61,264 nucleotides of DNA from an uncultured Thermoplasmata archaeon (GTDB lineage Archaea > Thermoplasmatota > Thermoplasmata > Halarchaeoplasmatales > Halarchaeoplasmataceae): NCBI GenBank assembly GCA_964399335.1, contig CAYNQI010000002.1:1-61264 (forward strand), read 5' to 3'. Shown piece by piece: positions 38,737 through 59,500 of the stretch. Numbering within the stretch: position 1 is the first letter of the stretch; every line of letters begins with the position of its first letter. The notes under the pieces were generated by a model. It did not search any database. It was not told the origin of the DNA and saw only the letters and a program-made list of their open reading frames with translations. Both the position numbers and the translations under genes were made by a program.

Positions 38737-39443
38737 GAGGATGTCAACTTAAGAATTAAAAAAGAGCATCCCATATGTTTATATGGGATCAAACATGAAT
38801 GGGATGCTCTCTAACCTAGTTAATACTTTAGAGAATAAAAACATTTTTGAAAGAGATCGAAAAGCTACTAGAACTAGAGCACTTGGTATACTGCTATATC
38901 ACTTTGGTCTGTCATTGAGGAAAACTAGAACAGTAATTTCTTCTTTTGAAAGGGTAAGTCATGAAGCTGTAAGAAAATGGTATCTTAAAGCAAAAGATAT
39001 TTTTTCCTTGCAGAAAAAACAACGCCAAGCTTTAGCAATTGACGAAACTAAAGTAAAAATTCAAGGTAAGCAGCATATACTTTGGGCTGCGATTGATATC
39101 CATAGCTGGGAAGTTTTGGGAGTCTGGATATCACAAGGTAGATCTTCAATTGAAGCTTACAGTTTCATTAAAAGCGTATTGAATAAATGTAAGAACAAGC
39201 CAAAAATCTATGTCGATGGAGGTCCATGGTACAAACCAGCACTGAATAGATTGGGTATAGAATGGGAACATGTTACCTTCGGAAATAGAAATCCGATCGA
39301 ACAATGGTTTGGAATACTAAAACAAAGAATAAAGTTATTTTACAAACGATGGCCACATAATGCTAGTGTTGAAACAGCACAACACTGGCTTGAATCGTTT
39401 GTAAGTATGTACCACTTTACGAGGTGATTAAGTTGACATCCTC
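38737..39443 (+). mobile_element. IS6-family insertion sequence, 707 bp, intact ends
   Basis: Perfect 16-bp terminal IRs GAGGATGTCAACTTAA (38737-38752) and TTAAGTTGACATCCTC (39428-39443). 8-bp direct repeat GCTTAATC at 38729-38736 and 39444-39451. Confidence 0.95.
38783..39427 (+). CDS. IS6-family DDE transposase
   Basis: AIDETKVK...LWAAID...YVDGGPWY...NPIEQWFGILKQR. Confidence 0.93.
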   Translation: MGSNMNGMLSNLVNTLENKNIFERDRKATRTRALGILLYHFGLSLRKTRTVISSFERVSHEAVRKWYLKAKDIFSLQKKQRQALAIDETKVKIQGKQHILWAAIDIHSWEVLGVWISQGRSSIEAYSFIKSVLNKCKNKPKIYVDGGPWYKPALNRLGIEWEHVTFGNRNPIEQWFGILKQRIKLFYKRWPHNASVETAQHWLESFVSMYHFTR

Positions 39444-50936: not shown

Positions 50937-51971
50937 ATGGAACCCTTAGATGACTTGTTGAACCTGAAACTTCTCAGACATATTGTATCAGGGAATTACG
51001 TCAAAGCCAATATTAGCTTTTTATCCCGGGAACTGGGGATCCACCGGGCTACAGCAAAAAGAAAACTGAACATGCTATATGAAAACAATATTTTGAACCC
51101 GCCACTATATCCATTTCCTTACCTATTCGAAAAAAATCCTCTATTGGTTTTAGTCAAAGCGGATATGCCCAGAACATCAGATGCTATCACCTTCTTCAAA
51201 GAAGATTCCCATATATTTGGAGCATTTTCATGTATGGAAGGGTCCTACAACACTCTGCTTATAGAATTCTTCGAAGACCTAGAATCTTACCATTTGTGGA
51301 GAGAACAGATCGTAAAAGATAAGAAGATCCCGTCTAGAGAGAACCGTGTACCAGCACACGCTGAGATATTCAGTAATAAACTCACATTCAAGTATGACCC
51401 AAATTGTTTCATAAGACCGATTAAAAAACAGTGGAAAATTGACGGGAATTTAGAACTTAACGGCATCCATTTCGATGAAACTTCGTTCCAACTGCTAGAA
51501 CTTTTATTGAGGGGGGATTGTTTCAGAACTAACGCCTCGGCAATAGGTAGAGAGATCGGTGCTGATCGAAAAACCGTAAGGAGGCGGATAGAAACTTTAC
51601 TAGAGAATGGTGTAATAGAGGAACCGTGCTGTTTTTTCAAAAACCTATTCGTACCACCAGGCTATAATTTTGTAGTTTCTTTGATAGAAGTGAAATCCAA
51701 AGTAGACAGTGTAAAAAAATATATTACGAGAGATGACCACGTCCCTAGAGCAGTAGAAACAAGTACAGAAAGGTATAACTTCCTTCTGTTTTCAGCCTTT
51801 GAAAACATCGAAGATTTCTTCGACTGGGGTGAGAGGTTAAATTTTAACTTTCCAGGAAGTATCGGTGCGATCTCGAATACTATATTGTCATCAAAGATGA
51901 TACATACTATCAAACCTCACAAGGTCTCTTTAGGTCTTATCGAGAGGCAGTTGTGGGAGATTGAACATTGA
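50937..51971 (+). CDS. Tandem (duplicated) Lrp/AsnC-like transcriptional regulator
   Basis: Two HTH halves (ISFLSRELGIHRATAKRKLNMLYENNIL; ASAIGREIGADRKTVRRRIETLLENGVI), each followed by a RAM-like segment (GSYNTLLIEFF; RYNFLLFSAF). Confidence 0.7.
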   Translation: MEPLDDLLNLKLLRHIVSGNYVKANISFLSRELGIHRATAKRKLNMLYENNILNPPLYPFPYLFEKNPLLVLVKADMPRTSDAITFFKEDSHIFGAFSCMEGSYNTLLIEFFEDLESYHLWREQIVKDKKIPSRENRVPAHAEIFSNKLTFKYDPNCFIRPIKKQWKIDGNLELNGIHFDETSFQLLELLLRGDCFRTNASAIGREIGADRKTVRRRIETLLENGVIEEPCCFFKNLFVPPGYNFVVSLIEVKSKVDSVKKYITRDDHVPRAVETSTERYNFLLFSAFENIEDFFDWGERLNFNFPGSIGAISNTILSSKMIHTIKPHKVSLGLIERQLWEIEH

Positions 51972-53490: not shown

Positions 53491-56478
53491 ATGAAGAATC
53501 GAGAAGACGAGATAAAAAAAACTATCGAGGAGATAACCGGGATAACCCCAAAAACAGAGAAGGAAGATAAGGGAGATGAATATCTTAGGGCATCCTATGT
53601 AGAAAATGTCCTGATCATTTCCCCTCCCTTCGATTATTTTTTATTCGAGGAAGAAGGTAGGTTAGAAGAACTCTTTGACGATGTATTTGGAGGTAGGGAA
53701 TTTGGTCCAGTACCAAATGTGATCCATGTGGAAAATGGTGGTGAAGGAAAGGATGTCTTGGATGACACCAAGATAGACCTGATAATAGTTTTCAGTGAAC
53801 CCATGGATATGGAACTGTTGAAATTCTCTGGTATGGTCAAGGATGATCATCCTGATATCCCCATAGTTTTGATCAGCAACGATACAGTAGAGATCAAAGA
53901 GATACTAAGAGAAGACAGTAAAGATACCATCGAAGAAGCTTTCACATGGTACGGGGACGGTAGGATAATCCTCAGTATTATCCAGTATATCGAAGATAAG
54001 AAAAATCTTGAAAACGAGGTACTTTCGAAAGATGGAAAGGCTATATTGCTGATAGAGGATTCTATCCAGTTCTATTCAAAATATCTGCCGTTGATTTATG
54101 AAGAGATATGGCATTACCTCGACTCTGTAATCGAAGACGACCTACCAAAAAAGATCAAGAGTAAAAGATACTGGAGTAAACCTTTCATTCTATTCGCTTC
54201 CGATATACGGAAGGGGAAGGATCTTTATAATAGATATCACGATAATTTGATATGTATAGTGACTGATAATCACTGTGGTTCAGACAACGAAGAACATCCG
54301 GGACTCGATTTTGCTCTACAAGTCGAGAAAGAGAGAGAAGACCTTTCTATTTTAGTTCAATCCTCGGAACCTATAGAAGGGTTCCCTGAAGATAGCGATA
54401 TAGAATTCATTTTAAAGGACTCTCCTGTACTCACTTCCAAGATCGGTGAGTTCGTTAGGAAAAATATAGGACCGTTAGAGCTAATTTTTAAAAATGAAGT
54501 CGGAACTGAATTGGCGGTCGTAGATGGTCTTAAAGGACTCGAAGAAGCTTTATGGAATATCGATAACGAGATCTTAGAAAAGTATCTCATGGAAAGTCAG
54601 ATAACTACCTGGTTAAGAGCTAGAGCTGAGTATGTCTTAGCTGAGGAGATAGAAAACCTCTCAAAGGAGGGAGAGAAAGAAGAGTTGAAAAGCCAGCTTA
54701 TCAACATCTTAGAAGAGCACAGATACAGATATCATCAAGGCACGATAACGAATTTCGAGAGAAGAAGGGAGAATCACTATAGCAAGATCAGCAGGATCGG
54801 AAAAGGTGCATTAGGTGGGAAAGCAAGAGGATTAGCTTTCATGGCTAAGATACTGTCAAAATATGTCACAGACGAGATGTTCGATGGCTTACGTATCACA
54901 GTCCCTAGAAGTGTGGTACTATCAACAGAGGTTTATGATAAATTTCTCGAGAAAAATGATCTTATTAATGATAACATCGATCTGATGTCCGATCAAAGGA
55001 TATCATCTAAATTCATCGATGGTTCCTTGTCAGCGACTGTATTAGGCGATCTTAGATCCTTTGTTAGAAACACGAAAACACCTCTTATCGTTCGTTCTTC
55101 TGGTTTATTGGAAGATTCATTGATGCAGCCCTTTGCCGGTATCTATTCTTCAGTATTACTTCCTAATGACTCATGGGAAACGGATCTTAGGTTCAAAGAA
55201 GTCTGTAACGCCATCAAACATGTCTATGCATCGGCATTCTTCGAAAAAGCAAGGACCTACCTGATGTCCACACCTAAGAAATTAGGGGATGAAAAGATGG
55301 CGGTGATGATTCAGGAAGTGGTCGGAAAAAAACATGGTAAATATTTTTATCCCGATATATCTGGTGTGGCTAAATCGTACAATCATTATCCTTCTGGTCC
55401 ATGCAGTTCTGAAGATGGTATAGTTTATCTTGCCCTTGGTCTTGGTAAAGCAGTGGTTGACGGGAGCAACACTTTCTGTTTCTGCCCAGAACATCCCAAA
55501 ATTCCTTTATCGGGTACCCCAAAAGATTTTATGAAGTACTCTCAGACCGACTTGTATGCAGTTGATCTTGAATCCGTTTACAAACGGATAAAAAAGGACG
55601 AAGAAACATCACTCGTTAAATTGAAACTAGACGAAGTAAAGAAACATGGTGTACTCGATAAGACTGTATCTACTTTTTCCCTGAGGAACGATAGGTTATA
55701 TCCAGGTACTGCCCATGAGGGTCCTATGGTGGTCGATTTTGGTCCCATAGTGAAATATAATTCAGTACCTCTCGCAAAGGCTTTGAAGATGCTGTTGAAG
55801 GTAAGTAGGATAGCATTAGGTTATCCCGTTGAGATAGAATTCGCAGTAAATCTAAACAAAGGAAAAAATGAACCCGCGGAACTAGTCATACTCCAGATAA
55901 GAAGTATGATCACGACCGAGAGTTTTTTAGATATGGATATCGATGAATATAAGGAAGATGAACTAATCTGTAAAAGTCAGAACGCCATAGGATATGGAGT
56001 GATCGGGGATATAAGAGACGTGATTTATATCAAATATGACGAGTTCGACTTCAAGGATTCTCAGAGCGTTGTTGAAAAACTTAGAAGATTAAACAAACGT
56101 TTGATGGATGATAAAAGACCTTATATTTTGGTCGGTCCAGGGAGATGGGGATCCTCTGATGAGTGGTTGGGTATCCCGGTCTTATGGAGTGATATTGCCG
56201 GGGCAAGGATCATAGTAGAAACCACGACTGCAGGTAGGCACATCGATCCTTCCCAAGGCTCTCATTTCTTCCATGACATGATCTCTTCTCAAGCTGGATA
56301 TATGATAGCGGATTCAGAAAATATTGATTGGGACTGGTTGAGATCTCAACAGATAGTAGAAAAACTAGAAGATATTGTCCATGTTAGAACCAAAGAACCA
56401 TTAGAAGTCATGATAGATGGAAAAGAGGGTAAAGGTGTCATCAAAAAGTCTAAAAAGGATGTTGAAGAAGATAATTGA
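53491..56478 (+). CDS. PEP-synthase/PPDK nucleotide-binding (ATP-grasp) domain protein with N-terminal receiver-like domains
   Basis: REC-like segments (ILLIEDS, CIVTD, ILVQSS), GGKARGLAF, VRSSGLLEDS, FAGIYSS, IQEVVG, LQIR, GPGRWGS, QGSHFF. No pyruvate-binding TIM barrel. Confidence 0.85.
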   Translation: MKNREDEIKKTIEEITGITPKTEKEDKGDEYLRASYVENVLIISPPFDYFLFEEEGRLEELFDDVFGGREFGPVPNVIHVENGGEGKDVLDDTKIDLIIVFSEPMDMELLKFSGMVKDDHPDIPIVLISNDTVEIKEILREDSKDTIEEAFTWYGDGRIILSIIQYIEDKKNLENEVLSKDGKAILLIEDSIQFYSKYLPLIYEEIWHYLDSVIEDDLPKKIKSKRYWSKPFILFASDIRKGKDLYNRYHDNLICIVTDNHCGSDNEEHPGLDFALQVEKEREDLSILVQSSEPIEGFPEDSDIEFILKDSPVLTSKIGEFVRKNIGPLELIFKNEVGTELAVVDGLKGLEEALWNIDNEILEKYLMESQITTWLRARAEYVLAEEIENLSKEGEKEELKSQLINILEEHRYRYHQGTITNFERRRENHYSKISRIGKGALGGKARGLAFMAKILSKYVTDEMFDGLRITVPRSVVLSTEVYDKFLEKNDLINDNIDLMSDQRISSKFIDGSLSATVLGDLRSFVRNTKTPLIVRSSGLLEDSLMQPFAGIYSSVLLPNDSWETDLRFKEVCNAIKHVYASAFFEKARTYLMSTPKKLGDEKMAVMIQEVVGKKHGKYFYPDISGVAKSYNHYPSGPCSSEDGIVYLALGLGKAVVDGSNTFCFCPEHPKIPLSGTPKDFMKYSQTDLYAVDLESVYKRIKKDEETSLVKLKLDEVKKHGVLDKTVSTFSLRNDRLYPGTAHEGPMVVDFGPIVKYNSVPLAKALKMLLKVSRIALGYPVEIEFAVNLNKGKNEPAELVILQIRSMITTESFLDMDIDEYKEDELICKSQNAIGYGVIGDIRDVIYIKYDEFDFKDSQSVVEKLRRLNKRLMDDKRPYILVGPGRWGSSDEWLGIPVLWSDIAGARIIVETTTAGRHIDPSQGSHFFHDMISSQAGYMIADSENIDWDWLRSQQIVEKLEDIVHVRTKEPLEVMIDGKEGKGVIKKSKKDVEEDN

Positions 56479-56538
56479 TGCAGTCTATAGAACAAAACTA
56501 TTTAGCGAGGTTAATCATAGATATATAAGGTAAATATC

Positions 56539-59500
56539 ATGGATGAGGATGTTAACGTCGAAAATAGAATTGAAAAGGAAATCGAGGATAAGATAACCCC
56601 TAGGAAGGAATTGGATGAACTTCAAGAACGGGTGAAAGAACTCAACTGTATCTATGGTATATCCGAGATAGTTAACGATGACAATTTATCATTAGAAGAA
56701 GCTTTGCAAAAGATCGTGGAACTACTTCCCCCATCTTGGCAGTATGAAGATATCGCTTGTGCTAGGATAAAATTGAACGGTGAAGAGTATAAGACGGATG
56801 ATTTTCGAGAAACGGAGTGGAAACAGCAGAGTATAATAGAAGTTGGGGGGGAGATTAAAGGGTCTCTAGAAGTATGCTATCTAGAGGAAAAACCCGAGAT
56901 AGATGAAGGACCGTTTCTCATCGAAGAACGGAGACTTCTGAACACTGTTTCTGATCTTTTAGGAAGGTTCATAGAAGAAAGAAGGGTGAAGAAACAGATC
57001 TCAGATGAAAAACAGGATTGGGAAGTTATCATAGACCTGTTGATGAGGACTGATCCTAAGACCCTTCTCAGGATGACCCGAAAGATGGTGTATTACCTTT
57101 ACAGACATGAGAACGAACAGATCTCGATGCTTTTGAATGATGTGTGTCCCATCGAACCCGATTCTGACACACCAAAATGGTGTGGGATAAATATGCCAAA
57201 TCCTAAACAGGATCTAGAGTCATTGAAAGAGATCCAGAAAAGTGTGTTTCAGATTGCAAAAGATAGTTTAGAACCGGAAGAGATATCTGAACTCTTTCAT
57301 AGATGGTTGAAGGAAGATAAAGCTAGACCGTTACTACTTGCTTCTCAAAGGAAGGGTATACCTTTGGTTGAGATAACAGATGAGCTCAATCGTTTTTTCG
57401 AAAAAGCTGATGCAAATACAGCTCTAGCTCCCGAGGATAAGATGGCTATCAGAACAGCCCTTATCCAAAGGTTTTTCACCGATAGATTGGAGTTCATCAA
57501 CATCGCAAAAAATTACATCCAATTGGATGATTTTGTCTCTTTATTGAAACGGCTCATCGGTCCTGCCCAAGGTGCTGGTAAAGTAGGTGGTAAAACCTCT
57601 GGGGCATATCTAGCCTATAAGATCCTTCAAAGGGAGAAGGATAGACACCCTGATCTCAAAGACATCAAGTTCCCCAAAAGTTGGTATCTTACGTCGGATT
57701 CTATGCTAGACCTGATACATTATAACGACTTGGATGAAGTTATACACATAAAATATCTCGATCCAGATAGGATCAGACAAGAACAGCCATTCCTCGAACA
57801 GATCATGAAGAATGCTGTATTCACTTCAGAGATCGTTGAGGGATTTAAAAAGATCCTCAGGGATATAGACGATAATCCGATAATAGTAAGATCCTCTAGT
57901 CTCCTTGAAGACAACTTCGGAGCAGCCTTTTCAGGCAAATACAAGAGTCTCTTTTTATCAAACAAAGGTTCTGAAGAGGAAAGATTGAATGCTCTCATGG
58001 AAGCGGTCGCCGAGGTGTATGCGTCTACTTTTGGTCCGGATCCCATAGAGTATCGTCGAGAAAAAGGGATGTTAGATTTCAGTGAAGAGATGGGGATACT
58101 TATTCAAGAGGTCGTGGGTAAAAGGGTAGGTCCATATTATGTTCCAGCCTATGCGGGTGTTGCTTTCAGTAAGAACGAGTTCAGATGGTCACCTCGTATC
58201 AATAGAGATGATGGGATAATCAGATTAGTACCCGGATTGGGAACTAGAGCAGTTGATAGAGTGGGTAATGACTATCCTATCTTGGTTTCTCCTAAAAGAC
58301 CTGAACTCAGGGTGAATACACTGGTTGAAGAGCGGATAAAGTACTCTCCACGATACATGGATGTCATAAATCTTGAAACTGGAGCTATAGAAACCGTTGA
58401 TGCCATAGAGATATACAAGAAATATGGAGAGAAATTTCCGTTCCTTGACAAGATCGTGTCGGTGTATGAGGATGGTGAACTTAGAAAACCTAAAAGCTTT
58501 TTATTCGATCCTGAAGAAGAGGATATGATAGTAACCTTCGATAAGCTGTTCGAAGAGACTGACTTCTTACTTTTGATGTGTAAGATAATGGATATACTCG
58601 AAAGTAAGATAGAGACACCTGTCGATGTTGAATTCGCTCATGATGGAGATAATCTTTACATCCTTCAGTGTCGCCCTCAAAGCCAGACTCAACAGATAAA
58701 ACGTAAACCTATCCCCATGGACATAAAGAACAAGGATAAACTGTTCTCCAGTAAAAAATTTGTCACCACCGGTCACCTAGAGAACATTGAATATATAGTG
58801 TATGTTTCTCCAGAAGGATACGCAAGTCTCGATAGCGAACGTAAGATGAGAAAAGTAGCTGATATAGTTGGAGAATTGAACAACAGTCTCCCTGAGAAAA
58901 GGTTCATATTGATGGGACCCGGGAGATGGGGAAGCCGGGGAGATATCACTCTTGGGGTACCGGTGAAGTACAGGGATATCAACAATACTTCATTGATAGT
59001 AGAGATAGCTAAAGAAAAAGGTGGATATTTACCAGAATTATCTTTTGGAACTCACTTTTTCCAGGATCTAGTTGAGGCCGATATAAAATACTTACCTCTT
59101 TATCCAGATGAGTCCGGAAACATCTTCAACGAAGAATTGTTGTATAGGTCAGAGAATCGACTGACCGAGATACTTCCTGGACAGGAGGATTTCGAAGAAG
59201 TTATCCGGTTAGTCCGGGTCAGTGATATCAGTTCAGGCGGTTCCTTAGATGTTGTCATGGACGGCGAAGCCAACGAAGCTCTAGCTTATCTAAGGTCTCC
59301 AGACCATTGGGAATGGAGGATGAATAAAGTGGAAACCATGGCAGATGAGTTGGACCCGGATATATACGGGGTTAAAGGCCTATATATCGTTGGGAGCACA
59401 AAAGAAGGTACAGCTTGTTCTAGAAGCGACATTGATCTTATAGTCCATTATACAGGAGAGCAAGAAAAGAAGGAAAAGTTGGAGAACTGGTTCTATGGAT

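Follow-up and report, generated by a model that had tools for sequence, protein, structure and literature searches.

The P1 and P2 genes and their shared domains

The window analyzed here is a stretch of 61,264 nucleotides from an uncultured Thermoplasmata archaeon (contig CAYNQI010000002.1 of assembly GCA_964399335.1, positions 1 to 61,264), and our subject is a pair of consecutive genes within it, together with the C-terminal domain that their products have in common. The first gene, P1 (53491..56478), encodes the 995-residue protein P0001 and was delimited from its open reading frame (ORF) and translation, Pfam matches and family architecture; the second, P2 (56539..59676), encodes the 1045-residue P0002 and was delimited from its ORF, translation and Pfam. 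Both genes, and all features described within them, lie on the plus strand. The two proteins are paralogues, with 29% identity over 529 residues in BLASTP (E 3e-44). P1 consists, in order, of a degenerate receiver (REC), a second receiver (REC2), a helical linker, an ATP-grasp domain of the PPDK_N type and a C-terminal His domain, while P2 consists of an N-terminal region of ~345 residues, a PPDK_N domain, a C-terminal His domain and a nucleotidyltransferase.

The ATP-grasp domains are recognized by PF01326 at 54808..55920 in P1 (residues 440-810, E 6e-37) and at 57580..58725 in P2 (residues 348-729, E 1e-52). The His domain of P1 follows at 55963..56460 (approximately residues 825-990), where it falls outside every Pfam model and is predicted to adopt a swivelling beta/beta/alpha fold; that of P2 lies at 58720..59250 (approximately residues 728-904), is alignable with the P1 domain and matches the domain profile with an E-value of 7e-45. 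An earlier note on this DNA had drawn attention to a region running from GPGRWGS to S-x-G-[ST]-H-F-F that both proteins share after the ATP-grasp domain, and had placed its histidines, His925 and His839, at 56263..56265 and 59053..59055. The shared region is borne out by the ORFs, codons, Pfam and BLASTP, whose alignment spans the ATP-grasp domain and both motifs. GPGRWGS is encoded at 56134..56154 in P1 (residues 882-888) and at 58915-58935 in P2 (starting at residue 793), the codons read at the two histidine positions are CAT, within GSHFF of P1 (923-927), and CAC, within GTHFF of P2 (837-841), and the spacing from GPGRWGS to the histidine motif is 41-44 residues in the two proteins. The two histidines occupy the same invariant column and are the proposed phospho-carriers.

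Neither Pfam nor NCBIfam finds in P1 or P2 a TIM-barrel PEP/pyruvate-binding domain or any other known acceptor domain. The NCBIfam dikinase models cover the ATP-grasp region only and score far under their cut-offs (58 bits against 883, and 62 against 598), and the database label of such proteins is "PEP/pyruvate-binding domain-containing protein". In P1 the ATP-grasp domain carries the motifs GxGxxGGK, VRSSxxxED, FAG, EIEFA and LQxR. Across 90 sequences from both paralogue families, GxGxxGGK, VRSS, ED, FAG, the glutamine of IQE, the glutamate of EIEFA and LQxR are invariant or at least 90% kept. We take these motifs to have the nucleotide-binding roles that they have in PPDK and rifampin phosphotransferase (RPH). 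A role of Lys22 and the triphosphate in the nucleotide site of RPH is described in PMC4844700. Judged by its intact PPDK_N motifs, the ATP site looks functional, and a phosphoryl acceptor is therefore needed.

Conservation, predicted fold and docking of the His domain

A phmmer search with residues 815-995 of P0001 against 1.84 billion cluster representatives (50% identity) returned 1504 at E<=0.001, 826 of them at E<=1e-10 and 254 at E<=1e-30; with residues 730-905 of P0002 as the query, at least 7836 proteins reached E<=0.001 among the 7999 candidates scored. Conservation was counted over 278 domain copies in 271 proteins, namely the best 120 relatives from the P0002 query, the best 150 from the P0001 query and P0001 itself, so that the counts cover top-scoring relatives only. 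The column of His925 is histidine in 278 of the 278 copies, as invariant as R885, G887, G894, S921 and G923; E910, G882 and G884 are kept in 277 copies, Y937 in 276, W886 and F926 in 275, and F927 in 274. This conservation exceeds chance by far. The residue preceding the histidine, counted in the 271 copies that fit S.G.HFF, is threonine in 168, serine in 89, alanine in 11, methionine in two and glycine in one, which puts Ser/Thr directly ahead of the histidine in 257. The canonical swivel motif GGxT[S/C]H likewise has Ser or Cys just before its histidine (PMC12167813). Minimal forms of ~580 residues consist of PPDK_N and the His domain alone, and the pair is therefore a conserved unit.

Structure models and docking were run on P1. 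The AlphaFold2 model of residues 430-995, built on a 90-sequence alignment, has a mean predicted local distance difference test score (pLDDT) of 92.2 and a predicted template modeling score (pTM) of 0.91, and the model of the isolated domain (815-995, 150 sequences) reaches a pLDDT of 93.8 and a pTM of 0.90. As modeled, the N-terminal half of the domain comprises three strands, a long helix, the strand YILVGP and a 20-residue loop, GRWGS...LGIPV, and the C-terminal half comprises the strand ARIIVET, a loop ending in S-Q-G-S, the helix of His925, a further strand and a C-terminal sheet; the whole has the three-layer beta/beta/alpha swivelling fold. His925 is residue two of its helix, directly after a Gly/Ser loop that itself follows the central strand.

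The relation to known dikinases emerges when the His domain is considered together with its ATP-grasp domain. In Foldseek the 566-residue two-domain model strongly matches RPH, PEP synthase and PPDK, with E-values down to 8e-13, and it superposes on PEP synthase and PPDK across both domains at once. A separate structure search, independent of Foldseek, covered 48,161 PDB representatives. By VIA-align, 354 residues are aligned with RPH (5hv3), residues 2-518 of the model lying on residues 7-866 of the chain, against at most 279 for chains with an ATP-grasp domain only. Maize PPDK aligns over the same ranges, but with a root-mean-square deviation of 13.6; in maize PPDK the swivel domain is turned to the other active site. 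In the model, the C-terminal domain of P1 sits on the ATP-grasp domain as in ATP-engaged dikinase structures.

For docking, P0001 was split into the ATP-grasp domain (430-812) with ATP and Mg, and the C-terminal domain (815-995) as partner. The median score was 0.74 (runs of 0.76, 0.69 and 0.74), the best of three controls scored 0.00, and the runs share at least 91% of their contacts with a partner pLDDT of at least 79. In calibration, 116 of 157 solved complexes attain the mark applied and so do two of 215 mismatched pairs; these counts are only rough here because our own alignment and a ligand were used. The predicted interface on the C-terminal domain takes in residues 918-929 (IDPSQGSHFFHD) as well as 887-890 (GSSD, across the end of the GRWGS loop). 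The pairs predicted with least error join Q922, G923, S924 and His925 to the ATP-grasp domain; for His925 the partners include V656, D657 and, in the conserved PFAGIY loop, G550. The predicted complex thus places the His loop against the phosphate loop of the ATP-grasp domain.

The earlier note had suggested a cryptic phospho-His swivel domain in the position of the TSH domain, and its suggestion gains support from the fold, the domain order, the docking geometry and the invariance of the histidine, all of which, like the intact nucleotide motifs, are observed in silico. We consider it fairly probable that the ~170-residue domain after PPDK_N is a highly divergent phosphohistidine swivel carrier, with His925 and His839 as the carrier residues.

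The His domain compared with known swivel domains

Several results weigh against a phosphohistidine carrier. As whole proteins, P0001 and P0002 have no match to PF00391 at E<=0.1 in Pfam, and across the genome the sole match to this family is a canonical PPDK gene on another contig. Twenty-one isolated His domains compared with Pfam at E<=10 gave nothing relevant (one luciferase-like match in one member), and the domain profile found six chance matches among all PDB sequences (E 0.49-1.4). The canonical signature T/SxxGGxxxH is not present in the domain. An hhalign comparison of the 278-copy profile with 29 true swivel domains, taken from genes for PPDK and PpsA within the same phylum, gave a probability of 0.36% (E 0.17); in its register, which is not significant, GGxTSH falls opposite the GRWGS loop instead of the histidine. 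For the isolated domain Foldseek finds no match at E<=0.001; its top row is a glycosylase without relation to the domain, and the row for PPDK has an E-value of 0.04 and a TM of 0.34. The docking result may reflect a likeness to, or memory of, solved PPDK, PEP synthase and RPH structures, and the equivalence of His925 with the catalytic histidine is something that we infer. Finally, the extra invariant polar residues R885, D890, E910, S921 and Y937 hint at a role beyond that of a plain carrier.

Other searches fared no better. The local, global and low-threshold modes of hhalign gave a probability of 0.36% or lower; whole P0001 had no match among PDB sequences and whole P0002 only weak ATP-grasp matches; and an ESM Atlas feature search returned Peptidase_S41 clusters only (0.83-0.86), under the meaningful level. 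The weak Foldseek rows for the isolated domain are those of PPDK, the PPDK carrier domain and Enzyme I (E 0.04-0.13, TM about 0.3). As to the register, the docking interface at the His loop favors that loop over the GRWGS alignment of hhalign.

By sequence criteria the His domain is not a member of PF00391, while by fold, position and predicted docking it is PF00391-like. It has no profile likeness, by hidden Markov models or otherwise, to the mobile domain of PPDK, PEP synthase, PTS Enzyme I and rifampin phosphotransferase. The signature of PF00391, T/SxxGGxT[S/C]HAA in PMC12167813, is replaced here by P-S-Q-G-[ST]-H-F-F together with the 20-residue GPGRWGS-D-LGxPV loop, and only the Ser/Thr before the histidine and a Gly-containing loop are common to both. 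The His domain is also longer, at ~170 residues against ~100-125: its first strands are followed by a long helix, and there are additional strands at the C-terminus. Additional invariant residues (R, D, E, S and Y) are a further feature that sets it apart from PF00391. P1 and P2 share with PEP synthase and PPDK the PPDK_N ATP-grasp with intact nucleotide motifs, whereas the TIM barrel is found in the latter only. The small-molecule dikinases, namely RPH and the two-component kinases HpeHI, CreHI and PpsAB, devote a separate domain to binding the substrate (the RIF-binding domain or HpeH). No such domain is recognizable in P1 or P2, which have receivers, the ~345-residue N-terminal region and the nucleotidyltransferase instead.

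The strongest alternative accepts the swivelling fold and gives it another task. The domain would then be a regulatory, ligand-binding or catalytic module rather than a phosphate carrier, comparable to DRTGG or to the additional C-terminal domain that pyruvate kinase has in Bacillus and Staphylococcus, with the invariant histidine, R885, E910, S921 and Y937 binding a ligand or forming another active site and the ATP-grasp domain acting directly on its substrate. The tie with DRTGG, the absence of a profile signal and the many extra invariant polar residues all speak for it. The DRTGG domain (AF1212, 2ioj; CBS-pyrophosphatase, 3l31) covers only residues 11-151 of the model and there is no Pfam DRTGG match, and the pyruvate kinase domain of Geobacillus and Staphylococcus (2e28, 3t05) is borne by pyruvate kinase, not by an ATP-grasp protein, with no sequence likeness detected. 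To our knowledge, DRTGG does not occur alongside PPDK_N ATP-grasps, and all characterized ATP-grasps of the PPDK_N type pass phosphate to a swivel histidine. The dikinases described in PMC4844700 and PMC12167813 hand phosphate on in this way. It is moreover the His loop, not another face of the domain, that is predicted at the phosphate site of the ATP-grasp; the domain order and rigid-body placement are as in PEP synthase and PPDK; and the histidine stands at the N-terminus of a helix after a Gly/Ser loop. We therefore regard a non-carrier module as the less likely reading, while one to be taken seriously.

Much less plausible is that P1 and P2 lack catalytic activity and serve as pseudo-dikinase scaffolds, which would only sense nucleotides or keep the receiver and nucleotidyltransferase domains together, their motifs being purely structural. 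Fusion to sensor-type domains, with REC in 31 of 45 P1-like proteins, would suit such a role, as would the lack of a recognizable acceptor domain. But neither the nucleotide motifs nor the His block vary between two paralogue families that are only ~29% identical, or between bacteria and archaea, which is the pattern of active sites and not of scaffolds. A fortuitous or compositional likeness of two paralogues, as an explanation of the shared motif, is refuted by the 1504 cluster representatives and by motif columns invariant in every one of the 278 copies.

Receivers, gene neighborhood and a possible acceptor

If the His domain is a phosphohistidine carrier, P1 and P2 would each carry out the first half-reaction of a dikinase, from ATP to phosphohistidine with AMP leaving. 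By analogy with PEP synthase, PPDK and rifampin phosphotransferase, Mg-ATP would be bound by the ATP-grasp domain; the C-terminal domain would dock with its S-x-G-[ST]-H loop at the phosphate site; the histidine would attack the beta-phosphate, with release of AMP; the gamma-phosphate would pass to water or phosphate; and the domain would then swing off and hand the phosphoryl group to an acceptor. The phosphohistidine chemistry, AMP as the product and the nature of the acceptor are what we infer from this analogy and from the locus. P1 and P2 have neither a TIM barrel nor an RPH-type substrate domain, nor an acceptor domain of any other known kind; the acceptor is therefore probably provided in trans or located within their unassigned N-terminal regions.

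The gene neighborhood offers a candidate. A glutamate dehydrogenase (GDH) gene, named from its translation, lies 10 bases upstream of P1 (52153..53481, plus strand), and a metallophosphoesterase-like gene, named from a reading of its sequence, lies convergent with P2 (59671..60522, minus strand); both are conserved neighbors. Of 121 genomes of the phylum that were sampled, 32 encode the His domain, and 14 of these 32 have a same-strand P1-P2 pair. Among 12 archaeal pair loci, 10 have a GDH gene (66-75% identical) directly ahead of P1 and two are truncated by contig ends; the phosphoesterase-like gene flanks P2 in all 12. Six loci with a lone P1 are without GDH and phosphoesterase neighbors. 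Five of the 12 pair loci (L048, L053, L057, L058 and L059) have a second, distant GDH-like gene (32-35% identity to the GDH of the window) just upstream of the conserved gdh, and in L057, L058 and L059 a third P1-like gene stands on the opposite strand immediately past the phosphoesterase gene. Upstream of gdh in the window, a 344-residue gene (50937-51971) resembles a double helix-turn-helix regulator by eye and has counterparts of 53% identity at the same position in two of the 12 pair loci (L049 and L050). Further away, a 214-residue ORF (38783-39427) looks by eye like an insertion-sequence transposase.

Beyond the phylum, a scan of species-representative genomes found at least 647 loci with the His domain in many bacterial and archaeal phyla; it used both motifs as patterns and is unusable for counting exceptions to them. 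The best 80 of these loci are mostly bacterial and belong to Ignavibacteria, Bacteroidota, Acidobacteriota, Gemmatimonadota, Planctomycetota, Chloroflexota and others, the Bacteroidota among them including Prevotella, Bacteroides and Phocaeicola. When the ORFs of 79 mostly bacterial loci are clustered, 52 loci have a GDH gene, so named from a reading of the cluster representative, no more than 6 kb from the P1-like gene. In 35 of these it is immediately upstream on the same strand, separated by a median of 152 bases, and 12 of the 79 loci have the phosphoesterase. In three Bacteroidales loci (L084, Bacteroides; L102, Prevotella; L127, Phocaeicola) the adjacent GDH gene is divergent from the P1-like gene, not in tandem with it. 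Trans-acting genes near gdhA reportedly affect GDH activity in Bacteroides thetaiotaomicron, to go by the title of a 1996 paper of Baggio and Morrison, which we mention as a lead only.

A functional tie between P1 and P2 is suggested by natural fusions. Seven proteins of 1523-1654 residues (P0073, P0075, P0099, P0118, P0126, P0127 and P0132) join the P1 core, that is, the ATP-grasp and His domains without receivers, to a whole P2, a Rosetta-stone hint that the two work together. The Pol-beta-type nucleotidyltransferase of P2 (59365..59511, residues 943-991) matches PF01909 with an E-value of 5.6e-6 and 27.1 bits against a cut-off of 21; its motif GS...DxD is readable in P2 as GS followed by DID, and NTP_transf_2 is found in 27 of 28 P2-like relatives.

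The receivers of P1 suggest how the module may be controlled. REC2 (54037..54435, approximately residues 183-315, with approximate limits) keeps E189, D190, D259, S291 and K309, and in 41 aligned P1-like proteins the corresponding residues are kept in 37 (E189), 30 (D190), 36 (D259), 36 (S/T291) and 34 (K309). PF00072 (Response_reg) is found at E<=0.01 in 31 of 45 P1-like representatives, five of them above the cut-off, and in P0001 itself Pfam gives no PF00072 match; a DUF5752-like stretch occurs in 15 of the 45, four above the cut-off. The first receiver-like region (53599-54000, P0001 residues ~37-170) reads as lacking the acidic pocket and the phospho-acceptor Asp, and P1 thus seems, as far as its residues can tell, to pair a pseudo-receiver with a genuine one. 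Five genomes that were checked have 9-18 HATPase_c matches and 5-15 receiver matches each, and with so many histidine kinases and receivers the P1 receiver can be served by ordinary two-component signaling; an ordinary histidine kinase probably controls the P1 module through REC2. A self-contained His-to-Asp relay working without a histidine kinase was considered and downgraded, since ordinary kinases are available in these genomes.

P1-like proteins resemble response regulators with enzymatic output in having receivers with the conserved Asp, Ser/Thr and Lys positions. Literature searches yielded no description of a dikinase-type response-regulator output (ATP-grasp with a swivel histidine), nor of the P1/P2 family. 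The nearest literature concerns RPH (PMC4844700) and the two-component HpeHI kinase (PMC12167813). A dikinase-like gene beside a response regulator in the nitrate-resistance cluster of Desulfovibrio was set aside as belonging to another family, because a canonical PEP-utilizing mobile domain is annotated for it (PMC4001038).

The conserved gdh - P1 - P2 - phosphoesterase cluster points to control of glutamate dehydrogenase. Because of this cluster and of the P1-core/P2 fusions, GDH or the partner protein would be the leading candidate for the acceptor. A tentative extension of the carrier reading, which we hold to be possible and somewhat unlikely, is that P1 and P2 form a protein-directed dikinase relay, in which the swivel histidine would pass the beta-phosphate of ATP to a protein and not to a metabolite, be it GDH, the partner paralogue or Asp259 of the receiver, with the nucleotidyltransferase of P2 as a second writer and the phosphoesterase as an eraser.

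A divergent carrier would supply the missing histidine, and what appears to be an orphan ATP-grasp would become a complete first half-reaction. It would also imply that a swivel domain can diverge past the reach of profile methods, so that other dikinases that look incomplete may be complete. The adjacency of GDH in most loci examined means that the family may be an unstudied control point between carbon and nitrogen metabolism. If the protein-directed relay were true, it would constitute an undescribed covalent control of glutamate dehydrogenase in Thermoplasmatota and in many bacterial phyla, including gut Bacteroidales.

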